Below, piece by piece: positions 8,228-59,376 of a stretch of DNA of 64,000 nt; position 1 is the stretch's first letter; the number at the start of each line of letters is the position of its first letter. This stretch comes from Candidatus Nomurabacteria bacterium (GTDB lineage: Bacteria; Patescibacteriota; Minisyncoccia; Phycocordibacterales; JACOZG01): positions 108,272 through 172,271 of the forward strand of contig JADLCI010000007.1 of NCBI GenBank assembly GCA_020847275.1. The letters are read 5' to 3'. The notes under the pieces were generated by a model, which saw only the letters and a program-made list of their open reading frames with translations, had not been told where the DNA came from and made no database searches. The translations under genes and the position numbers were made by a program.

Positions 8228-9439
8228 ATGCTATTTAATTATAAAGCGGTAACTAAGGAAAATCAGGCACAAGAGGGAAGCATTGACGCTCCGGGTTTGG
8301 AGTTGGCGATCTCCTCACTTCAACGTCGGGGTCTGATTATTCTAGATATCAAGGCGGCCGATGAAAGGGGGCGCGGTTTTCTCTCGCGTTACTTTATCTT
8401 TTCTCGTAAACCCAAGATGAAGGATGTTGTCCTGCTTTCGCGTCAGATTGCCACAATGTTTGAGGCGAAGGTCTCGGCCCTGGCCACCTTCCGCTTATTG
8501 GCGTCTGAAGTCGAAAGTCCGGTGCTGAAACGCGCCCTCACCGAGATTGCCGATGAGATCAATAGTGGTGTTCTTATCTCCACTGCGATGACCAAGCAGG
8601 AAGAAGTCTTCTCACCTTTCTATGTGAGTATGGTGAAGTCGGGTGAAGAATCCGGTAAATTATCGGAGGCGTTTAATTACTTGGCGGCCTATCTTGAGCG
8701 TTCTCACGGTCTGGTGAGCAAGGCCAAGAATGCGCTCATTTATCCAGCCTTCATCATCCTCTCCTTCATTGTGGTGATGATTTTGATGCTTGTTTTCGTG
8801 ATTCCCAAACTTTCAGCTATCCTGAAGGAAACCGGACAGGCTATCCCAATCTATACTCGGGCGGTAATTGGTTTGAGTCAATTTTTCGTAGATTATGGCT
8901 TCTTCCTCTTGGCGGGACTTGTGGTCTTGTCCGTCTTCGTCGGCCGTTGGCTCCGGACAGACTCTGGTCGCCGTTCGCTCTCTTCCTTCAAGCTTTCCAT
9001 CCCGTATGTGGGCAATCTCTATCAGAAACTCTATCTCTCAAGAATTTCCGATAACTTAAGCACAATGCTTACCTCCGGCATCTCGATGGTCCGCGCCCTG
9101 GAGATTACCTCTGAGGTTGTGGATAACGATGTCTATAAGGAAATTATGTTGAAATCAGCCGAATCGGTGAAGAATGGTAATCAGGTTTCTGCCGTAATGT
9201 CTAAGTATCACGAGGTTCCCTCAATTCTGGTTCAGATGTTTCGGGTTGGTGAAGAAACCGGTAAACTGGGCTCGATTCTAGAGACGATTGCCCGTTTCTA
9301 CCAACGCGAGGTCTACGATGCCGTAGATACTCTGGTTGATCTGATTGAGCCGGCAATGATTGTGCTTCTTGGTGCGGGAGTGGGAATCTTGCTTACCTCT
9401 GTTCTGGTGCCAATTTATAACCTGGCTAGCGGTATTTAG
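8228..9439 (+). CDS. pilC: Type IV pilus platform protein PilC (GspF family)
   Basis: Two GspF-like repeats. Three TM segments. About 400 aa. Confidence 0.75.
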   Translation: MLFNYKAVTKENQAQEGSIDAPGLELAISSLQRRGLIILDIKAADERGRGFLSRYFIFSRKPKMKDVVLLSRQIATMFEAKVSALATFRLLASEVESPVLKRALTEIADEINSGVLISTAMTKQEEVFSPFYVSMVKSGEESGKLSEAFNYLAAYLERSHGLVSKAKNALIYPAFIILSFIVVMILMLVFVIPKLSAILKETGQAIPIYTRAVIGLSQFFVDYGFFLLAGLVVLSVFVGRWLRTDSGRRSLSSFKLSIPYVGNLYQKLYLSRISDNLSTMLTSGISMVRALEITSEVVDNDVYKEIMLKSAESVKNGNQVSAVMSKYHEVPSILVQMFRVGEETGKLGSILETIARFYQREVYDAVDTLVDLIEPAMIVLLGAGVGILLTSVLVPIYNLASGI

Positions 9440-9458
9440 TTGTCCACAGAGGCGTCTT

Positions 9459-9546
9459 TTGCCCTTATTCTCCATTGCCGTATAATTAAGCCCGTGATGG
9501 TCAAGCAATTTCTCGACGTTGACCGTTCGCCCGGTTTTGTTATTAT
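9459..9546 (+). promoter_or_regulatory. Two tandem sigma70-like promoter candidates upstream of the first pilin gene
   Basis: TTGCCC-16nt-TATAAT (9459-9486) and TTGACC-16nt-TATTAT (9519-9546). Confidence 0.35.
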
Positions 9547-9582
9547 TAGAAAAGTCGAAAGATTATTAAAAGTTAATCATAT

Positions 9583-10044
9583 ATGATGAAATTGAATCTT
9601 AAGAAAGGTTTTACCCTGATTGAGCTCTTGGTGGTTATCGCCATCATCGGTATTCTGTCAGGTATTGTGTTGAGTTCGCTCAATACGGCGAGAGGTAAGG
9701 GTCGGGATGCCGCTGTTCAGGCACAAATGGCAAACATGAGAAGTCAGGCAGAGTTGTTTTACTCAAATAACAACAACTATGGCACGGCTGTTGCTCTGGG
9801 TGCTTGTGTAAGTGCCGCTGGAACATTGATTGATTCTGCCAATACGTCCAGCTTGCACGCTCTGGTTCTTACTGGGGCTATTGCCGGGCAGAGTCCACAG
9901 TGTGTTGTTAATACAACAAACGCTGCCTGGGCGGTGTCTGCGCTTAAGCCCACCAATGCAGCGGAAAGTTTCTGTGTAAGTAATACTCAAGCAGTCAGCT
10001 CTGGGGGTAACCACATCGCCCAAGCTGCTGGGACTTGCTCCTAA
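9583..10044 (+). CDS. Type IV pilin, candidate major pilin
   Basis: Class III signal MMKLNLKKG|FTLIELLVVIAIIG with E at +5. C-terminal Cys pair. A strong terminator follows directly. Confidence 0.8.
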   Translation: MMKLNLKKGFTLIELLVVIAIIGILSGIVLSSLNTARGKGRDAAVQAQMANMRSQAELFYSNNNNYGTAVALGACVSAAGTLIDSANTSSLHALVLTGAIAGQSPQCVVNTTNAAWAVSALKPTNAAESFCVSNTQAVSSGGNHIAQAAGTCS

Positions 10045-16979: not shown

Positions 16980-18277
16980 GTTATCCGGAAATAGACAATG
17001 CGCAGCTGAACGCTTTCTTGGAAGTTTTTGCTGATGTCGCGGAGCAGAAGAGAGTTCAATCTGGAGAGACGGGTCCACTTGCCGGCTTGAAGATTGCGGT
17101 GAAGGATAACATTTTAATCAAGGGAAGGATTAGCTCATCGGGGTCCAAGATTTTGAGTAATTATATAGCAAGCTATGACGCGACGGTAATCAAGAAGTTG
17201 CGTGAAGCGGGGGCAGTCTTTGTTGGCCGTACTAATATGGATGAATTTGCAATGGGAGCATCAACGGAGAACTCGGCGTACGGGGTTACGAAAAATCCGC
17301 ATGATTTGAGTCGCGTGGCGGGTGGATCATCTGGTGGGTCAGCCGCGGTCGTTGCCGCCGGTCTGGCTGATGCGGCTCTTGGTTCTGATACCGGTGGTTC
17401 TATTCGCCAGCCAGCCAGTTTCTGTGGAGTAGTTGGGTTGAAACCAACCTATGGTCGCGTATCGCGCTTTGGTCTTACTGCCCTCGCCTCTTCTCTAGAT
17501 CAAATTGGTCCAATTGCTAAAACCGTGAACATGGTGGAGAAAATTTATCAGGTGATTGCTGGCTATGACGAGAATGATGCCACGAGTGTGGACGCTAAAT
17601 TTTTTGAAACAAAAAAAGATGAGAAGCTAAAGATTGGTGTACCTAGACACCTGCTCGCGTCTGGGGTTGATCCGGAAGTTCTTCAAAATTTTGAGGATAC
17701 GTTGAAAAAATTAGCTCGTTTGGGTCACGAAGTGATTGATATTGAATTGCCCGCCGTGAAATATGCCATTGCTTGTTATTACATCATTATGCCAGCGGAG
17801 GCATCCACCAACCTCTCGCGCTTTGATGGCTTGCGTTATGGCCTGAAGAAAGAGGGAGAGAATCTGCTTGATGATTATTTGCAAACACGAGGAACAGGGT
17901 TCGGCTCGGAGACGCGACGGAGAATAATTCTGGGTACCTATGTTTTATCCTCTGGCTACTATGACGCTTATTATGGTCAGGCGACACGGGTGCGTGGTTT
18001 CATCAAGCAAGATTTCGTCCGAGCCTTCCAGCGGGTGGACGCGATCGCTCTTCCAACCGCACCCACCACCGCTTTCAAAATTGGCGAGAAGGCGAATGAC
18101 CCACTGCAAATGTATCTGGCCGATGTTTTCACCTCTCCCGCCAATTTAGCCGGTTTACCCGCAATTTCTATTCCCTCCGGTAAGGATAGCAACAATTTGC
18201 CGATCGGTTTCCAGCTCATCGCTCCACCGTGGCGTGAAGACAGGTTGTTTGCCCTCGGCCTTCAAATTGAATCATGA
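16976..18277 (+). CDS. gatA: Asp/Glu-tRNA amidotransferase subunit A (amidase signature family)
   Basis: Amidase signature GGSSGGSAAVVAAG. Catalytic Ser/Lys context. Confidence 0.85.
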   Translation: MSYPEIDNAQLNAFLEVFADVAEQKRVQSGETGPLAGLKIAVKDNILIKGRISSSGSKILSNYIASYDATVIKKLREAGAVFVGRTNMDEFAMGASTENSAYGVTKNPHDLSRVAGGSSGGSAAVVAAGLADAALGSDTGGSIRQPASFCGVVGLKPTYGRVSRFGLTALASSLDQIGPIAKTVNMVEKIYQVIAGYDENDATSVDAKFFETKKDEKLKIGVPRHLLASGVDPEVLQNFEDTLKKLARLGHEVIDIELPAVKYAIACYYIIMPAEASTNLSRFDGLRYGLKKEGENLLDDYLQTRGTGFGSETRRRIILGTYVLSSGYYDAYYGQATRVRGFIKQDFVRAFQRVDAIALPTAPTTAFKIGEKANDPLQMYLADVFTSPANLAGLPAISIPSGKDSNNLPIGFQLIAPPWREDRLFALGLQIES

Positions 18278-18816
18278 TTATCAAATATTTTAATCTACAA
18301 TATTTCTACAATCTAATATATCGGCTAATCACCAGTCCGTGGTATTTAGAAGTGCCTGTCTGGTTTCCGCTCGTTTGGCTTCTTGTCATCATTGCCCTGT
18401 GGATTGCCATTGTCGCGATTGCCCTAAAAATATATCGACAACGCAAAGAAGAGTCGGCTGATCTAGAGTTTCTCTTGAAAAATAAGTCAGCCGAGCCGGT
18501 GGAGAAGAATGACCGGTGGGAGAAGGTTCTGAAATATTTGGAATCAGAAAATCCAGCAGAATGGAAATTGGCGATTATCGAAGCGGATACAATGCTTGAC
18601 GATTTAGTTAAGTCGCTTAAGCCGGTGGGGGAGAATCTGGGTGAAAGATTGAAAAGTATTGAACCGAGCGACTTCCTGACCATTCAAGAAGCGTGGGACG
18701 CACATAAGGTTCGTAATCGTATTGCTCATGAATCCGATTTTCAACTCTCTCGTCACGAGACCTCACGGGTGATCGGTTTATTCCGCCAAGTGTTTGAGGA
18801 GTTCAAATATATCTAG
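18274..18816 (+). CDS. Hypothetical membrane-anchored protein
   Basis: N-terminal TM helix then a charged helical region. No recognisable motif. Confidence 0.4.
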   Translation: MIIKYFNLQYFYNLIYRLITSPWYLEVPVWFPLVWLLVIIALWIAIVAIALKIYRQRKEESADLEFLLKNKSAEPVEKNDRWEKVLKYLESENPAEWKLAIIEADTMLDDLVKSLKPVGENLGERLKSIEPSDFLTIQEAWDAHKVRNRIAHESDFQLSRHETSRVIGLFRQVFEEFKYI

Positions 18817-18861
18817 TTCACCTAGCCTTTTTCATTCAATGTGCTAGAATGTAGTCCACTC

Positions 18862-18935
18862 TGCGGGGTAGAGTAACAGTAATTCGCGAGGCTCATAACC
18901 TTGAGATCTTGGTGCAAATCCAGGCCCCGCAACCA
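18862..18935 (+). tRNA. tRNA(CAU) with an atypical D-loop and T-loop; initiator-like A11:U24
   Basis: Acceptor TGCGGGG/CCCCGCA + A + encoded CCA. Anticodon stem CGAGG/CCTTG with loop CTCATAA (CAU). D-loop AACAGTA lacks GG. T-loop is TGCAAAT. Confidence 0.55.
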
Positions 18936-18948
18936 GCCAGAAAATTAA

Positions 18949-19024
18949 GTCGGCGTAGCTCAGTTGGTTAGAGCGTGGGACTCATAAGCCCAAGGTCGCT
19001 GGTTCGATTCCAGCCGCCGACACC
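18949..19024 (+). tRNA. tRNA-Met/Ile2 (CAU), elongator-type
   Basis: Cloverleaf GTCGGCG...CGCCGAC, closely parallel to E. coli elongator tRNA-Met. Anticodon loop CTCATAA. G1-C72 is paired. There is a 31:39 A/G mismatch. Confidence 0.75.
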
Positions 19025-19053
19025 GTTTTTTAATAGAATTTGAAAAACGAAAC

Positions 19054-19130
19054 GCGGCCGTAGCTCAACTGGTTAGAGCACTCGCCTGTCACGCGAGAGG
19101 TTGCCGGTTCAAGTCCGGTCGGCCGCGCCA
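19054..19130 (+). tRNA. tRNA-Asp (GUC)
   Basis: GCGGCCG...CGGCCGC acceptor with encoded CCA. Anticodon loop CTGTCAC. Confidence 0.85.
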
Positions 19131-19158
19131 ACGATATCTAGACCAACATACTTTTGAT

Positions 19159-19554
19159 ATGGATATTACTAATGAGTTCTCGTTTGTGCTAAAGCCATCG
19201 CAACATGGTATTGGAGTTTTTGCTGTTCATAAAATCTTGAAAGATACTCATCTTCGTCTTTTTGGAGATAATGAGACATTGGATTTGCGTTCCATTGCTC
19301 GTCCAAAAGAAAATGTTCCAAACCCATTTCACTCTTATTGTATGGAAAGAAAAGGTGCATTGATTTGTCCAGAAGATTTTGGGCGGATGCATGTTGGTTG
19401 GTATCTGAATCATTCAAAAAACCCGAATACCCGTCGGGACGAAGATTTTAAATGGTATTCTTCAAGAGATATTGAAGCTGGAGAAGAAGTATTGATTGAC
19501 TACAATTCTCTTGAAGAGCCAGATGAAGCAAAGGAGGATTATTACAAATCCTAA
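19159..19554 (+). CDS. Minimal SET-domain protein (vSET-like protein-lysine methyltransferase fold), 131 aa
   Basis: GIGVFAV (GxG), NHSKNPN (cf. NHSCxPN) and EEVLIDY (ELxF/YDY) SET motifs. About 37% GC versus about 48% in the flanks. Sits between tRNA genes. Confidence 0.65.
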   Translation: MDITNEFSFVLKPSQHGIGVFAVHKILKDTHLRLFGDNETLDLRSIARPKENVPNPFHSYCMERKGALICPEDFGRMHVGWYLNHSKNPNTRRDEDFKWYSSRDIEAGEEVLIDYNSLEEPDEAKEDYYKS

Positions 19555-19593
19555 GATGGCTTTTTCTCGCTTTTTATAGTAAATTTGTGGGGC

Positions 19594-19668
19594 GCCAGAG
19601 TAGTTCAGTGGTAGAACGCCATCTTGGTAAGATGGAGGTCGAGAGTCCGATTCTCTCCTCTGGCTCCA
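19594..19668 (+). tRNA. tRNA-Thr (GGU)
   Basis: GCCAGAG...CTCTGGC acceptor, T, CCA. Anticodon loop TTGGTAA. Confidence 0.8.
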
Positions 19669-19680
19669 GTTTTTTGAAAA

Positions 19681-19756
19681 GCCACCTTAGCTCAGCTGGT
19701 AGAGCACCACTTTCGTAAAGTGGGGGTCCCCGGTTCAATCCCGGGAGGTGGCTCCA
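19681..19756 (+). tRNA. tRNA-Thr (CGU)
   Basis: GCCACCT...AGGTGGC acceptor with encoded CCA. Anticodon loop TTCGTAA. Confidence 0.8.
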
Positions 19757-19767
19757 GAGTCAGAATT

Positions 19768-20631
19768 ATGAATAAACAAGAAATTAGTCAGAAAATAGAA
19801 GAGTTGGAGAGCGAAATGCAGAAAGCCGGTTTCTGGTCCGACAAGATTAGGGCGCAAGAAGTGATTAAGATGGTGGCGGAGATGAAGCAGGATTTATTGG
19901 GGGGAGAGAAGTATGATTCGGGTAATGCGGTGATTACCATTTTCTCCGGAGCAGGCGGAGATGATGCTGAAGATTTCTCGGCCATGCTATTACGGATGTA
20001 TCAACGTTTCGCTGAGAAGCGCGGTTTCGGTATGAGTCTCATTCATGAGAACCAGAATGACCACGGCGGCTATCGGAATATCACTTTCTTGATGCAAGGA
20101 AAAGGGGCTTATGGTATATTGAAGAATGAGTCTGGTGTTCACCGACTCGTTCGTGTCTCACCATTCAACGCCAAGCAGGCGCGGCACACCTCTTTCTCGC
20201 TGGTGGAAGTAATTCCCGAGATGAAGAAGAGTGAACTGGTGAAAATTTTACCCGATGATTTGAAAATAGAATTCTCTCGTTCAAGCGGTCCGGGCGGACA
20301 GAATGTGAATAAGCGAGAGACGGCGGTTCGGATTGTTCATCTGCCCACAGGACTCTCGGCTCACTCTGGGGCGGAGCGTTCTCAGGAACGTAATCGGGAA
20401 AGGGCGCTTCAGATTCTCTCTGGTAAACTTTATCGTCGTCAGGAAGAAGAGCGCGAGGCGAAGGAGAAGGGGATGTATATCTCCAAGACGACAGAAATTG
20501 AATGGGGGAATCAGATTCGGTCTTACGTTCTACATCCATACAAGATGGTTAAGGATCATCGTAGCGGGGTAGAAACCAATCAAGTTGATAAAGTTTTGGA
20601 CGGTGAGATTGATTTGTTTTTGTCTCAATAA
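19768..20631 (+). CDS. prfB: Peptide chain release factor, RF2-type, unusually short (287 aa) and encoded without the programmed +1 frameshift
   Basis: SPF codon-recognition motif (RVSPFNAKQ) and GGQ (SGPGGQNVNK). The true start MNKQEIS is 12 nt after tRNA-Thr, so there is no room for a frameshift window. Domain 1 is about 60 aa shorter than E. coli RF2. Confidence 0.7.
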   Translation: MNKQEISQKIEELESEMQKAGFWSDKIRAQEVIKMVAEMKQDLLGGEKYDSGNAVITIFSGAGGDDAEDFSAMLLRMYQRFAEKRGFGMSLIHENQNDHGGYRNITFLMQGKGAYGILKNESGVHRLVRVSPFNAKQARHTSFSLVEVIPEMKKSELVKILPDDLKIEFSRSSGPGGQNVNKRETAVRIVHLPTGLSAHSGAERSQERNRERALQILSGKLYRRQEEEREAKEKGMYISKTTEIEWGNQIRSYVLHPYKMVKDHRSGVETNQVDKVLDGEIDLFLSQ

Positions 20632-20642
20632 AAAATTTCCTA

Positions 20643-21323
20643 ATGATTTACTTTGATAAAGTCAGTAAGATTTATCCCGACAGCTCGGTTGGTCTTGAGG
20701 AGGCGACCTTTACCGTTGAGCCGGGACAGTTTGTTTCCATTGTTGGTCATTCTGGCGCTGGCAAGTCCACCCTTCTCAAGATGATTCTGGCGGAAGAGAA
20801 ACCATCGGCAGGTAAAGTCTTCTTCAACTCATTAGATATTCATGAATTGCCGCCAAGAGAGGTGCCAGAATTGCGCCGGCGTATCGGGAGTGTGTTTCAA
20901 GATTTCCGTCTCTTACCGAACAAGACCATTTTTGAGAATATCGCTTTCGTAATGGAGACGGCTGGTCGCACCGACGAAGAGATTGCCGCTGATGTGCCCC
21001 ACGTGCTTGAACTCGTTGGCCTTGAACACAAGATCTGGAGTTTCCCGTCGCAACTCTCCAGTGGTGAAAGACAAAGGGTCGCAATTGCTCGGGCAATTGT
21101 GAATCAGCCGGAACTTCTTCTTGCCGATGAACCCACCGGTAATCTTGATCCCATCAACACCTTTGAAATCATCGATATTATGAGTAAAATTAATGCGCTT
21201 GGTACGACGGTAATTATGACCACACACAATAAGGGGGTAATTGATAGTCTCGGACGACGTGTGATCACGCTGGAAAAAGGTCGGATTACTCGGGACGACA
21301 AATCTGGTAAGTATGTTTTATAA
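20643..21323 (+). CDS. ftsE: Cell-division ABC ATPase FtsE
   Basis: Walker A GHSGAGKST. ABC signature LSSGERQR. Followed by ftsX. Confidence 0.85.
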   Translation: MIYFDKVSKIYPDSSVGLEEATFTVEPGQFVSIVGHSGAGKSTLLKMILAEEKPSAGKVFFNSLDIHELPPREVPELRRRIGSVFQDFRLLPNKTIFENIAFVMETAGRTDEEIAADVPHVLELVGLEHKIWSFPSQLSSGERQRVAIARAIVNQPELLLADEPTGNLDPINTFEIIDIMSKINALGTTVIMTTHNKGVIDSLGRRVITLEKGRITRDDKSGKYVL

Positions 21324-21334
21324 AAAAATAACAA

Positions 21335-22252
21335 ATGCTAACTACTAAACTTCGTCGTATTGCTTGGTCGGGTTTCCTCAATTTCTTCCGGACACCGGTG
21401 GTGGCACTGGCTTCGGTGATTACGCTTACGGTTACCCTCTTTGTGATCGGCTCTTTGGTCCTTGCCAACGCTTTCTTCTCCGCCTCGATAGCGGAAGTTC
21501 AGAGGAAAGTAGATATAAGTGTATCGTTCAAACAAGATGTGGAGGAAAGCCGGATTCTGGAGGTGAAGAATTCTCTCGAACTTCTACCGGAGGTTAAGGA
21601 AGTGGCGTACAGTTCCCGAGAGCAAGAATTGGCCGACTTTCGTTCCCGCAATGCCAGCAATGCCCTAGAGCTACAGTTACTTGATGAACTTGGTAATCCT
21701 TTTGGTGCTAGGTTAAATATTCGTGCCGCCGACCCGGTTCATTATGAGAGTATTGCTAAATTTCTTGATAATGAAAGTGGTTCCGCCAGTAACCTCGCGG
21801 TGATTGATAAGATTAGTTTCAAGCGTGATGTGGTGGATCGTTTAATTTCTCTCGTCCGTACGGCCAAGAGAATTGGCTTCGCCACGACGCTTCTATTTGT
21901 CTTCATTTCGCTTGTCGTTACGTTCAATACAATTTCTCTCGCTATTTATATCTCACGAGAAGAAATTTCCCTAATGAAACTGGTTGGCGCGAGTCCGAAC
22001 CACATCCGTGGACCTTTTCTCGTCGAGGGGATTATCTCCGGTGTTATTTCGGCCTTGCTCGCGTTGCTCCTGCTTTACCCTGCGACTATCTGGCTTCGAG
22101 ATATCACTTCTAGTATTTACGGTGGTTTGAATTTGGCAACCTATTTCTCTAGCCACTTTGCGACCCTGCTTGGACTCTTGCTCGTTTCTGGGGTGATTCT
22201 CGGGGTGTTGGCAAGTTTTATGGCTACTCGACAGCACTTGAAACGACAATAG
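21335..22252 (+). CDS. ftsX: Cell-division permease-like protein FtsX
   Basis: Four TM helices, a large extracytoplasmic loop, and synteny after ftsE. Confidence 0.75.
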   Translation: MLTTKLRRIAWSGFLNFFRTPVVALASVITLTVTLFVIGSLVLANAFFSASIAEVQRKVDISVSFKQDVEESRILEVKNSLELLPEVKEVAYSSREQELADFRSRNASNALELQLLDELGNPFGARLNIRAADPVHYESIAKFLDNESGSASNLAVIDKISFKRDVVDRLISLVRTAKRIGFATTLLFVFISLVVTFNTISLAIYISREEISLMKLVGASPNHIRGPFLVEGIISGVISALLALLLLYPATIWLRDITSSIYGGLNLATYFSSHFATLLGLLLVSGVILGVLASFMATRQHLKRQ

Positions 22253-56563: not shown

Positions 56564-57133
56564 ATGAAAAGAGAAATCGCTCTTCAAAATAAAAAGGTCA
56601 CCTACACTCTCCGGAAGAGCAAGCGAGCTCGAAGAATGCGTCTCGCCGTGTATTGTGACGGTACAATAGTTGTTACTACGCCGTTTGATCTCAAAGAGAC
56701 GGTTGCGGAGAGGTTTATCCGAGAGAAAAGCCAATGGCTTTTCTCAAAGATAGCGTTTTTCGAGCAATTCAAGGGTCTTGCAATTACTCGTTACTCACAC
56801 GAGGACTATCTTAAAAATAAAGACCGCGCTTATGAGCTTGCGATTGAGCGAGTGCAGTATTTCAACAAAAAGCATAAGTTCATTTTTAACAAGATCAATA
56901 TAAAGAATCAGAAGACTCGCTGGGGCAGTTGCTCTAAAAAAGGAAACCTAAATTTTAACTATAAAATTGTGCTGCTTCCGCAACGGCTTGCCGACTACAT
57001 CATCGTTCACGAACTATGCCACCTCAAGGAATTTAATCATTCCAAGAAGTTTTGGAATCTAGTCGAGAAAGTAATTCCTGATTATACAAGGATTAGAGAT
57101 GATCTGAAGAGAAGTGGCGTCACTTTTTACTAA
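56564..57133 (+). CDS. YgjP-like / DUF45 M48-family metallopeptidase, often linked to type I R-M
   Basis: HExxH (IIVHELCHLKE) in the WGSCSKKGNLNFNYKIVLLPQ context. Confidence 0.7.
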   Translation: MKREIALQNKKVTYTLRKSKRARRMRLAVYCDGTIVVTTPFDLKETVAERFIREKSQWLFSKIAFFEQFKGLAITRYSHEDYLKNKDRAYELAIERVQYFNKKHKFIFNKINIKNQKTRWGSCSKKGNLNFNYKIVLLPQRLADYIIVHELCHLKEFNHSKKFWNLVEKVIPDYTRIRDDLKRSGVTFY

Positions 57134-57134
57134 C

Positions 57135-57665
57135 ATGATTCATAAAATCAGAAATTTTATCCAAAGTTTAGAGAAGAGGCAGATTATCGCTTATATCGTC
57201 TTTTTGCTACTCGCCACAATCGTGTTCGTTGGAATGACCTTCTTTAAGGAGACGTTTCAAAAGATTGGATACACGTTACTTCTCATTGAACTCATTCTTC
57301 TAGTGACCGTTGCTTGGGCATTGGCCGGGCATGCGGTAATGAAATCACTCTTTGTTGTCGGCGCTAGTTTATCGCTGATCATTTTTCTCTCGCAAGCATA
57401 CTGCGGAGCCCCCAATCTTTCTCAGGCAGGTAACGATGCGCTCAAGACACTTATTGCTTTTGGTTTTATATACATCGCCACAAATTTTCTCCGAGCACTA
57501 TACAAAGAAGTCACTGATAGGACCAAGGTCCTGAGGCAAGTAAATGGCGGGAAGAGCCCGTGGTTCTTTCTTGTGCCATTTGCGTTGTTTGTCGGCTTGT
57601 TTGTATGGCAGATCGTTCAGATCATTATGCCAATTTTACAAAACCTCTGTATTTACCAAATTTGA
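57135..57665 (+). CDS. Hypothetical polytopic membrane protein
   Basis: Four or five TM helices. Starts 1 nt after the ygjP-like stop. Confidence 0.4.
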   Translation: MIHKIRNFIQSLEKRQIIAYIVFLLLATIVFVGMTFFKETFQKIGYTLLLIELILLVTVAWALAGHAVMKSLFVVGASLSLIIFLSQAYCGAPNLSQAGNDALKTLIAFGFIYIATNFLRALYKEVTDRTKVLRQVNGGKSPWFFLVPFALFVGLFVWQIVQIIMPILQNLCIYQI

Positions 57666-57769
57666 ACCTGTTGGTAACTAACGCTTCGCAATATCTCCTG
57701 ATTAAGCTAGGATGCTTCACGATAGCCAAATGTGCTATCATGCTCCTGACAATTGAATAAGCAAAAGTA

Positions 57770-57915
57770 GCCTAAACTCGGCGTTGCCGGGCATGGTGAA
57801 AAGTCCTATCAAGCCCAGAAAACCCATCATGGGGTCGCTTGATAGGCCATATCGGGAAACTGATATGAGTGGCCGAAAGGCTGCTACCCGTGGTGGGCTT
57901 TCTGTTTTTAAATAA
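57770..57915 (+). ncRNA. Candidate structured RNA (sRNA or cis-regulatory leader) with nested hairpins and a terminal U-run
   Basis: 10-bp stem cctatcaagc/gcttgatagg (57804-57846) enclosing cccat-c-atggg. catatc-N8-gatatg. gcc-GAAA-ggc tetraloop hairpin. ccc-gtggt-ggg then ctttctgttttt. No plausible ORF. Confidence 0.35.
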
Positions 57916-57959
57916 AAACAGAGGTTCATCTCGGCAGATTATTAGTAATTTATAAAACT

Positions 57960-58883
57960 ATGCCGAGAAATAAACTTTTTAGTTTGATTATAGGAATTGG
58001 AGTTTTCATTCTAGTTGCTGGCGGAGGATATTATTATTGGTGGGCCGGAACTCCTCAATACTCGCTCATCCAAATCAAAGGAGCTGTTGATAACAAAGAC
58101 GTTACTACAGCTCTTTCTTATTTCGACACCGACGCTATTTTTGAGAATCTCTGGACAGATATCCAGGCCCAGGTAGCCGAATCAGCAGTTAAAGATTTGA
58201 AAGACAATCCTTTCGGGGCTCTCGGTGCCGCCCTGGGACAAAGCATGTTGAATAATATGAAGCCAGCTATGAAGCAGAAATTCTCGGATAGTCTTAAAGA
58301 GTCTCTGACAAATCCGTCAACAGCGACTAGCAGTATTGCAACGACAATCCAAGGCAAGAGAACTATTAAGGTAAACGGAGACACTGCTATTGTTACCGTC
58401 GAAAATGGTTTAGAGATGAGGATGCTAAAACAAAGTGACCGCCGGTGGAAAATTATTGCTTTGAAAGGATTGCCTAGTATCGATAATCTAATGTCTAAAG
58501 ACACCGCCCAATCATCTGAACCAAGCAATGATTTAAGCAAGAAAGTTAGTCTGGAAATTACTAAGAAGGGATTCTCTGATGAAAATTATCAAACCAAAAA
58601 TACGCTTGTCTTACAGCTCAACAATCTTACTGGCAAAGATATTCAGGGTGTGAAGGGGAGCATTGTTATTAAAGATCTTTTTGGAGATGCGATTAAGCAC
58701 ATCGATATTTCCTATGACGGTGGATTAAAACAGGGAGAGAGCAAACTCTATTCTATTGGCGTCGAATACAATCAATTTATGGAAGAAGATATTAAGTTGC
58801 GTCAAACTGCATTAGAAAAACTGCAATACGATTGGGAACCAAGCACTATTATCTATGAGGACGGGACAAGAGAAAATTCCTAA
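57960..58883 (+). CDS. Hypothetical membrane-anchored (lipoprotein-like) protein
   Basis: N-terminal TM helix and a Ser/Thr-rich extracytoplasmic region. Confidence 0.4.
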   Translation: MPRNKLFSLIIGIGVFILVAGGGYYYWWAGTPQYSLIQIKGAVDNKDVTTALSYFDTDAIFENLWTDIQAQVAESAVKDLKDNPFGALGAALGQSMLNNMKPAMKQKFSDSLKESLTNPSTATSSIATTIQGKRTIKVNGDTAIVTVENGLEMRMLKQSDRRWKIIALKGLPSIDNLMSKDTAQSSEPSNDLSKKVSLEITKKGFSDENYQTKNTLVLQLNNLTGKDIQGVKGSIVIKDLFGDAIKHIDISYDGGLKQGESKLYSIGVEYNQFMEEDIKLRQTALEKLQYDWEPSTIIYEDGTRENS

Positions 58884-58884
58884 T

Positions 58885-59376
58885 ATGTCAAAGAATGGCA
58901 ACGGAAGATCATTCAGCCGAAAATTTGTATCGATAGTTTATTATTTGCCGTCGATCTTTCTCATTATTTTGGGTTTTGTTTTTGCCTCTTCTGGCTCACC
59001 TGGATTAGGAACAGTCGTGTTTGTTGTTGGTGTTTTTTCCTGGCCCCCTCTTGCTAGAGGGGTGAGAAATATAAAATTTCCGTCAATGCCGCGACGGCTG
59101 ACTAACAACGAGAAAAAGGAGCTTCATAGAAATAAAGAAGTCCGCGAAACCAAATGTACCTGTGTGGCTTGTGATAACGTGTGGTTTTACGGAAAATCAG
59201 ACATTCGATTAGAAAATCAAAAGAAGGCCGGGAATCAACTAAAGGTCATGGCCTGTTGTAGTGGTTGTTGGTTACCCGCGATTGCCCTGCCACATCAACG
59301 GGTAATAGATCTTGATAAATGTCCTAAGTGCGGTTCTAAGTCTGTGAAAAAAGAGGAGGTGGTTCATTATGTCTAG
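58885..59376 (+). CDS. Hypothetical membrane protein with a C-terminal Zn-ribbon
   Basis: CTCVAC...CPKCGSK Cys pairs. Two TM helices. Confidence 0.35.
   Translation: MSKNGNGRSFSRKFVSIVYYLPSIFLIILGFVFASSGSPGLGTVVFVVGVFSWPPLARGVRNIKFPSMPRRLTNNEKKELHRNKEVRETKCTCVACDNVWFYGKSDIRLENQKKAGNQLKVMACCSGCWLPAIALPHQRVIDLDKCPKCGSKSVKKEEVVHYV

Follow-up and report, generated by a model that had tools for sequence, protein, structure and literature searches.

Why does a bacterium without histones carry a gene for a minimal SET-domain protein, and why does that gene lie among tRNA genes? We addressed this question for an open reading frame (ORF) at positions 19159 to 19554 (+) of a 64,000-nt stretch of a Candidatus Nomurabacteria (Patescibacteria) genome. 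The whole stretch is referred to below as the window, and the ORF and its 131-aa product as the SET gene and the SET protein. A first-pass annotation of the window, made from the letters alone, had described the ORF as a minimal SET-domain gene resembling the viral protein vSET and probably recently inserted into a tRNA cluster. We found that the ORF is an intact gene for a predicted protein methyltransferase, that its relatives form a large prokaryotic family, and that it occupies a site that is without SET in several related genomes.

The ORF is an intact gene for a predicted minimal SET-domain methyltransferase

The translation of the ORF (MDITNEFSFVLKPSQHGIGVFAV...LNHSKNPN...GEEVLIDYNSLEEPDEAKEDYYKS) contains the motifs GIGVFAV, NHSKNPN and EEVLIDY that had been read in it at first (Table 1), and its assignment as a minimal SET-domain gene held up in a profile search. 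The protein matched Pfam PF00856 (SET) at 35.9 bits, above the gathering cutoff of 22.4 (E = 1.1e-8), and the match extended over profile positions 1-105 of 105 and residues 17-116 of the protein. SET was the sole Pfam domain in the 131 residues. A chance ORF is ruled out by this E value and by 199 homologues of the same length. In an alignment of 44 homologues, with a mean column identity of 61%, eight residues were invariant (G17, G19, N84, H85, S86, E109, E110 and Y115), so that the GxG motif, the NHS motif and the catalytic tyrosine are all retained throughout the family. The GIGV region aligned with GYGV of Set2 and of vSET, Y115 aligned with Y105 of vSET and with the tyrosine of the FDY motif of Set2, and the position of Y60 was invariant or aromatic in the 44 homologues. 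The Pfam match is present and the catalytic residues are in place; the enzyme looks active. The same alignment has two nearly invariant cysteines, C61 and C70, and a conserved acidic C-terminal tail, NSLEEP...EDYY (N116, L118, E120, P121, Y129).

Structure prediction gave the same assignment. The AlphaFold2 model, built with the 44 homologues as input, had a predicted local distance difference test score (pLDDT) of 89.2 and a predicted template modelling score (pTM) of 0.80. A Foldseek search of the PDB with this model returned 283 matches at E ≤ 1e-3, and 50 of the 50 matches listed were SET domains. The top match was vSET (3kma_A; E = 2.3e-7; template modelling score of 0.73 on the length of vSET), followed by P. 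falciparum PFL0690c (PfSET) and S. pombe Set7, and then by MLL1 and G9a, each of the five with a probability of 1.0. These structural neighbours were all protein lysine methyltransferases. As judged from sequence and model, the ORF is an intact gene for a minimal SET-domain protein methyltransferase, and its product is most likely a protein lysine methyltransferase that depends on S-adenosylmethionine (SAM). There was no signal peptide, secretion domain, ankyrin repeat or hydrophobic N-terminus in the 131-aa protein, and the NCBIfam model for AnkI/LegAS4 (NF043024) gave a score of 19 bits against a cutoff of 550.

The SET protein belongs to a large prokaryotic family

The view that SET proteins are rare in bacteria and usually horizontally acquired, which had been part of the first-pass annotation, did not survive a broader search. 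An identical protein is already in NCBI, on a 296-kb contig, as 'SET domain-containing protein [Candidatus Nomurabacteria bacterium]'. There were at least 199 homologues with 53-74% identity, nearly all of them 127-135 aa long, and those with names came from Paceibacterota, Parcubacteria or Patescibacteria. Among the GTDB species representatives, 117 loci had a SET relative. The best 80 of these 117 loci, from which the spread over taxa was read, included at 50-68% identity Paceibacteria, Yanofsky-, Wildermuth-, Azam-, Taylor-, Zambryski-, Sung-, Moran-, Uhr-, Doudna- and Peribacteria, and at 39-50% identity Saccharimonadales, Acidobacteria, Myxococcota, Planctomycetes, Chlamydiota, Verrucomicrobia, Nostoc, Methanoregula and Woesearchaeota. 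An exhaustive profile search of 1.84 billion cluster representatives detected 2113 proteins at E ≤ 1e-3, mostly 115-165 aa in length, and with the limit set at E ≤ 1e-10 the number was 512; the 512 matches are clusters at 50% identity and come from Patescibacteria and other bacterial and archaeal phyla.

Because of the 199 or more homologues, the wide spread over GTDB taxa and the 512 clusters, we conclude that the SET protein is, by its distribution, a member of a large native prokaryotic family of stand-alone SET proteins (approximately 115-165 aa) that is common in Patescibacteria (Paceibacteria/Parcubacteria). By the same homology searches, the gene is neither a relative of vSET nor a eukaryote-derived oddity. 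This agrees with the view taken in a review that SET genes are not simply transfers from eukaryotes to bacteria (PMC3980110). Our literature search turned up no paper connecting SET domains with Patescibacteria.

Domain fusions were considered as a clue to function and set aside, since they consisted only of tandem SET-SET proteins (P0121 and P0129), a single cupin fusion and one weak GNAT fusion. A phage or defence origin was rejected, with just three distant viral matches in IMG/VR and no match in either PHROG or PADLOC. One metagenome-assembled genome, JAACPR01 (Candidatus Parcubacteria CG_2015-02_34_13), has two SET paralogues on different contigs (L037 and L053).

The SET gene is an insert in a tRNA cluster that accepts varied cargo

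ARAGORN and Rfam agreed that the SET gene is wedged between two tRNA(CAU) genes and a tRNA-Asp gene on one side and two tRNA-Thr genes on the other, as had been described. We found relatives of this arrangement by a metagenome search anchored on the 180-aa membrane protein that is encoded upstream of the tRNAs. The backbone consists of ligA, gatA, the membrane protein gene, tRNA genes in the order Met-Met-Asp-Thr(ggt)-Thr(cgt), prfB, ftsE and ftsX. It was found without SET in L102, L103, L105 and L107-L110, and the distance from tRNA-Asp to tRNA-Thr in these loci was 165-515 nt: 165 nt in L107, L108 and L110, 346 nt in L102 and L105, and 508-515 nt in L103 and L109, in which the spacer is filled by an ORF of 76-79 aa for a CxxC zinc ribbon. 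This zinc-ribbon ORF (CxxC...CxxCxGxG; L103 8090-8320, L109 8189-8428) has weak similarity to DnaJ-CXXCXGXG and to Anti-TRAP.

There was also cargo in the neighbouring spacers. Several relatives have a free-standing HNH endonuclease ORF of approximately 150 aa, either between the two tRNA-Thr genes (as in L107, L109 and L015) or shortly ahead of tRNA-Thr(cgt) (Table 1). The Thr-Thr spacing of L108 and L110 equals that of L107, and the corresponding gap in the window is only 12 nt. A NUDIX gene lies ahead of prfB in L103 and L107, and in L099 the Met and Asp tRNAs are separated by genes for a nucleotidyl transferase and a membrane protein. In L101, a tyrosine integrase gene lies downstream of tRNA-Asp, and the 3' end of this tRNA recurs as a perfect 22-nt repeat; as read from the sequence, these are signs of integrative elements at the tRNA cluster. 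In this lineage, the Asp-Thr spacer and the spacers beside it are hot spots for insertion, and by comparison with the empty sites SET is itself an insert. To this extent the proposal of an insertion was correct.

The proposal that the insertion is recent fared less well. SET also follows tRNA-Asp in L009 (after 75 nt), L010 (262 nt) and L015 (1.6 kb), with varying further cargo between SET and tRNA-Thr or prfB. The SET proteins of these three loci are just 62-67% identical to that of the window, and the GatA protein and the 180-aa membrane protein of L015 are 57% and 52% identical, respectively, to their counterparts in the window. The four SET proteins fell into one clade of a neighbour-joining (NJ) tree without support values. 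In a tree of GatA, the contigs with empty sites formed a separate tight clade, with the window and L015 outside it. From these comparisons, a single old acquisition appears at least as likely as repeated insertions, and the insertion of SET is not demonstrably recent. A gene with a NADAR domain directly follows SET in L009 (1120-1500) and L010 (2706-3155) and is absent from the window.

Some of the relatives contain a repeated module next to tRNA-Asp. In L015, a 233-aa ORF, YdjM and SET form a cassette that is flanked by two near-identical copies of a module of approximately 190 nt; L010 and L101 have one copy each. The 3' end of the module is an exact 19-22-nt copy of the 3' end of the tRNA-Asp of the same genome. 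Besides this 3' end, the module has a terminator-like hairpin and a conserved core, GGAYTYGAARGNCGGAG; its predicted structure includes a long-range stem in which two pairs covary, and there was no match in Rfam. It looks like either the attachment-site (att) arm of a small element that targets tRNA-Asp or a novel structured RNA, and its copies in the relatives point to site-specific recombination at tRNA-Asp in this lineage. We looked for att scars and an integrase gene around SET in the window and found none; the window likewise has no att-like repeat and no conserved tRNA-Asp module.

The SET gene is AT-rich, and so is its family

The SET gene had been described as compositionally odd, and our measurements bear this out. 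Its GC content is 0.371, compared with a window mean of 0.468, and its GC content at third codon positions (GC3) is 0.273, compared with a mean of 0.494. Of the 61 ORFs of the window, none has a lower value of either measure (z about -3), and only 0.9% of 396-nt segments are equally AT-rich. Host codon usage predicts a GC content of 0.44-0.46 for the SET protein, and the observed value is 0.07-0.08 lower; the deficit is therefore a matter of synonymous codon choice, and amino acid content was rejected as its cause.

A similar bias was found in the family as a whole. The SET gene was AT-richer than the codon usage of its neighbours predicts at 51 of 64 loci (from L001-L089, plus the window), including the syntenic ones, and it was the most AT-rich gene at 16 of the 64. 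The mean deviation in GC content was -0.021, with extremes of -0.107 in L051 and -0.105 in L066. The window SET gene, the most AT-rich of 24 neighbouring genes, is among the stronger deviations of the set. Because the AT bias is family-wide, composition is weakened as a clock for the insertion.

The ORFs with the next-lowest GC content in the window (0.40-0.42) are located at 56564-57133, 57114-57665, 57960-58883 and 58855-59376. Inside this low-GC run (56564-59376) is a LOOT RNA (Rfam RF03000) at 57769-57885 (+), with a score of 81 bits against a gathering cutoff of 46.4. There is also a LOOT RNA at 13065-13188 of L101.

SET genes repeatedly follow tRNA genes

Placement behind a tRNA gene is not confined to the window. 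A same-strand tRNA gene ended no more than 300 nt upstream of SET at 7 of 52 Patescibacteria species loci, compared with 7 of 421 other ORFs (Fisher p = 2.5e-4). The tRNAs upstream of SET were Asp, Asn, His, Leu, Gln, Ala and Arg. In the NJ tree of SET proteins, which does not contain L061, five of these seven tRNA-adjacent loci were scattered. Because the tRNAs are varied and the loci are scattered over the tree, the association has arisen repeatedly.

L061 (Moranbacteria UBA2206) has a complete unit of promoter, tRNAs, SET and terminator: a TTGACC/TATGAT promoter, tRNA-Ala, 11 nt, SET, 8-15 nt, tRNA-Arg and a terminator. This is a second SET gene wedged between tRNAs. At the other tRNA-adjacent loci (L011, L017, L029, L052, L061 and L066) there were no att copies beside SET. 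Pfam detected no integrase in the downstream ORFs of L011, L017, L052, L061 and L066; the L029 sequence ends at SET.

The other neighbours of the SET homologues vary from locus to locus. We clustered 723 neighbouring ORFs from 87 loci and found no conserved protein partner, just a generic ABC ATPase in 9 of the loci, and neighbouring genes were set aside as a clue to the substrate.

The SET gene is probably transcribed with the tRNAs

The ORF is not separated from the flanking tRNAs by a terminator, nor is there a promoter in the gap from tRNA-Asp to the start codon; SET is therefore probably transcribed together with the tRNAs and prfB, and its mRNA would be freed as the tRNAs are processed. 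The consensus scan detected no + strand terminator anywhere in 18200-20200, and in the gap from tRNA-Asp to the SET start codon it gave no promoter match. The sole nearby + strand promoter match was weak (9/12) and was located inside the SET ORF, at 19479-19506. The sequence TGcTAGAAT at 18842-18850 is a possible candidate promoter for the whole tRNA-SET-tRNA-prfB unit; it was not listed by the scan, as it has no -35 element.

A motif resembling a Shine-Dalgarno sequence is present within 25 nt upstream of just 12 of the 61 window ORFs, and a SET gene without one is therefore normal for this genome. In several SET homologues, the ATG is preceded by a TATAAT-like box at a distance of 7-10 nt. 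These boxes, together with the scarcity of Shine-Dalgarno motifs, suggest that leaderless mRNAs occur in these bacteria.

Proposed function and alternative explanations

Considering all of these results, we think it probable that the SET gene encodes a functional, stand-alone minimal SET enzyme that methylates protein lysines, and that it is an accessory gene in a tRNA hot spot, co-transcribed with the tRNAs. The enzyme would move a methyl group from SAM to a lysine of a protein and, by analogy with vSET and in view of the tandem SET-SET proteins, would probably act as a homodimer. Its gene would be a solitary accessory gene of streamlined genomes that tends to follow a same-strand tRNA, and its mRNA would be made with the tRNAs and cut free by tRNA processing. 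Because the SET protein lacks a signal peptide and has an acidic pI of 5.3, one might speculate that the target is a basic cytoplasmic protein of the bacterium itself, for example a nucleoid-associated or translation protein.

Several observations weigh against this explanation. The gene context at the 87 loci offers no hint of a substrate, and a weak, partial similarity to BurB (E = 0.03), a SET-fold methionine S-methyltransferase, leaves room for a substrate that is not a protein. The control ORFs in the tRNA comparison (7 of 421) come from the same loci as the SET genes, and some of the loci share ancestry. Co-transcription is deduced from signals that were absent in a simple consensus scan, and several homologues have their own -10 box, or a terminator, beside the tRNA. 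There is also no integrase, att repeat or tRNA-Asp module in the window to explain how SET arrived.

A different account of the locus is that SET arrived recently from a donor of lower GC content and has not yet taken on the composition of its host. Its GC and GC3 values, the lowest in the window and 0.07-0.08 below the expectation from host codons, would fit such an origin, as would the empty sites in a related clade. The nearest homologues (72-74% identity) are in other contexts, and one of them is in a genome of 36% GC and has a GC3 of 0.28, as in the window. However, the AT bias is family-wide and includes syntenic loci (51 of 64), and the diverged SET genes behind tRNA-Asp in L009, L010 and L015 (62-67% identity) make the linkage look old. 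This agrees with the divergence between the window and L015 in GatA (57%) and in the membrane protein (52%) and with the single NJ clade formed by the four SET proteins, and there is neither an att scar nor an integrase gene in the window. We regard a recent horizontal insertion as unlikely.

Two further alternatives concern the substrate. An episymbiont might deliver the SET protein into its bacterial or archaeal host, where it would methylate chromatin or other proteins. Such a protein would resemble the SET nucleomodulins of Legionella, Chlamydia and Bacillus, and the characterised bacterial SET proteins are mostly effectors (PMC3980110). With an E value of 1.1e-4, the SET domain of LegAS4 ranks among the best sequence matches. 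The gene is also an accessory one of patchy distribution, and there are homologues in Methanoregula at 41-43% identity. An effector nevertheless seems quite improbable to us: the 131-aa protein lacks a signal peptide, a secretion domain and ankyrin repeats, its score with the AnkI/LegAS4 model is 19 bits where 550 are called for, SET is linked to secretion genes at 0 of 87 loci, and members of the same family are found in free-living Acidobacteria, Myxococcota, Planctomycetes and archaea. Still less probable is that the protein methylates methionine, as BurB does, or another small molecule. BurB (9l4t) was the best single-sequence match in the PDB (E = 0.028), but the match covered only aa 77-120, the generic region of NHS and EExxxDY. 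With the family profile, BurB (E = 0.027) fell far behind the protein lysine methyltransferases, to which all of the structural neighbours belong, and no biosynthetic gene context was found at the 87 loci. We also give little credence to a bolder combination, in which the SET family found across Patescibacteria would be a mobile accessory lysine methyltransferase at the interface between episymbiont and host, acting on a nucleoid or surface-associated protein of the bacterial or archaeal host, with an mRNA that, in some genomes including that of the window and L061, would exist only as a leaderless transcript punctuated by tRNAs and excised from a tRNA operon.

Features of the locus and of its relatives

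The features of the window around SET and the corresponding elements of related loci are listed in Table 1. Relatives keep prfB in place without SET, and a functional tie between SET and prfB was rejected. The window prfB has an uninterrupted frame of 287 aa, with the SPF motif visible in the translation. Its PCRF match begins at profile position 84, which gives a short N-terminus, and there was no sign of the usual programmed frameshift.

Table 1. Positions of features around the SET gene in the window and of related elements in other loci
Feature	Position	Strand	Remarks
Possible extended -10, TGcTAGAAT	18842-18850	+	Read by eye; just upstream of the first tRNA
tRNA-Met(cat)	18862-18935	+	ARAGORN and Rfam
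tRNA-Met(cat)	18949-19024	+	ARAGORN and Rfam
tRNA-Asp(gtc)	19054-19130	+	ARAGORN and Rfam; ends 28 nt before the SET start codon
SET coding sequence	19159-19554	+	ATG to TAA; 131 aa; 15.4 kDa; pI 5.3
GIGVFAV, aa 17-23	19207-19227	+	GxG, SAM-binding motif I of SET domains
NHSKNPN, aa 84-90	19408-19428	+	SET motif III (NHS), contacts SAM
EEVLIDY, aa 109-115	19483-19503	+	SET motif IV; last residue is the catalytic tyrosine
tRNA-Thr(ggt)	19594-19668	+	ARAGORN and Rfam; begins 39 nt past the SET stop codon
tRNA-Thr(cgt)	19681-19756	+	ARAGORN and Rfam
prfB (release factor 2, PCRF and RF-1 domains)	19768-20631	+	Begins 12 nt past tRNA-Thr(cgt)
ftsE	20643-21323		After prfB; backbone kept in relatives
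ftsX	21335-22252		After ftsE; backbone kept in relatives
HNH ORF	L107 8163-8615; L109 8748-9200; L015 8563-9015; L099 7475-7819		PHROG HNH families, E about 1e-13
Integrase/repeat region of L101	8197-8218 / 8399-8420, 8528-8814, 9085-10017		Includes two to three partial tRNA-like copies
Module of about 190 nt	L015 3428-3621 and 5416-5614; L010 1943-2112; L101 8216-8420		Follows tRNA-Asp

Significance

The SET gene of the window is a tidy but fairly ordinary accessory gene, already annotated, and it does not overturn current views. The points of most note are the repeated placement of SET genes behind tRNAs, the use of the tRNA cluster as a cargo site, and the possibility of tRNA-punctuated expression. 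As the locus shows, a conserved tRNA cluster is a landing pad at which these streamlined genomes take up small cargo genes. The family itself is abundant, highly conserved and of a size that makes biochemistry easy, and would offer a practical entry to protein lysine methylation in ultra-small episymbiotic bacteria.

Comparison with known systems

The resemblance to vSET proposed at first was partly upheld. vSET (A612L) of Paramecium bursaria chlorella virus 1 is a dimeric methyltransferase of 119 aa that acts on lysine 27 of histone H3 (PDB 1n3j, 3kma). Like vSET, the SET protein consists of a minimal SET core and lacks pre-SET and post-SET domains, and the motifs NHSK-PN and GEE-I-Y are common to both; the tandem SET-SET fusions of the present family would fit a dimer. 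vSET is the best structural match, and an hhalign comparison of the SET family with vSET gave a probability of 97%, with 30% identity over 92 columns and the pairs (SET protein/vSET) G17,G19/G15,G17, Y60/Y50, N84-H85-S86/N69-H70-S71 and Y115/Y105. Residues 41-106 of the vSET sequence used for this comparison agree with the alignment from the profile search. In sequence, however, vSET is no nearer than other SET proteins. Identity is only 24-30%, and the family profile matched vSET at E of approximately 1e-4, which is no better than its matches to yeast Set2 (4e-5), LegAS4 (1.1e-4) or ASH1L. The closest sequence relatives are proteins of Patescibacteria, at 53-74% identity, and not the chlorovirus protein. 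Unlike vSET, the SET protein has a middle insert that is 10-15 aa longer and contains the conserved C61 and C70, its family has a conserved acidic C-terminal tail, and the family is prokaryotic rather than viral, in a cell without histone H3. As these alignments indicate, "vSET-like" is a statement about architecture and not about ancestry.

The proposed mode of expression has parallels in units that combine tRNAs and mRNAs, such as the thrU-tyrU-glyT-thrT-tufB operon of E. coli and the 'tRNA punctuation' of mitochondria. As in those units, the SET coding sequence abuts same-strand tRNAs with no terminator or upstream promoter between them. Unlike in those units, there are tRNAs 28-39 nt away on both sides of the ORF, an arrangement that is unusual for bacteria.

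The SET nucleomodulins of bacteria, which include Legionella LegAS4/RomA, Chlamydia NUE/cpnSET, Bacillus anthracis BaSET and Burkholderia BtSET, share the SET catalytic core with the present protein, and the family profile matches the SET domain of LegAS4 over aa 17-124. The nucleomodulins differ in that they are larger, are secreted, have extra domains and act on eukaryotic histones, and no eukaryotic host is evident here.

In a methanogen, Go1-SET methylates MC1-alpha (PMC3980110). When the Methanoregula homologue was used as the query, all proteins returned were unnamed or bore the generic label "SET domain"; no Methanosarcina protein and no named, characterised protein was among them, and a direct link of our family to Go1-SET was dropped. 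Its substrate, MC1, is not a bacterial protein. Go1-SET is nonetheless, like the protein described here, a small, stand-alone prokaryotic SET enzyme; the present family includes members from archaeal methanogens (Methanoregula); and Go1-SET has an endogenous DNA-binding substrate, which makes it the best functional precedent for a minimal SET enzyme in a cell without histones.

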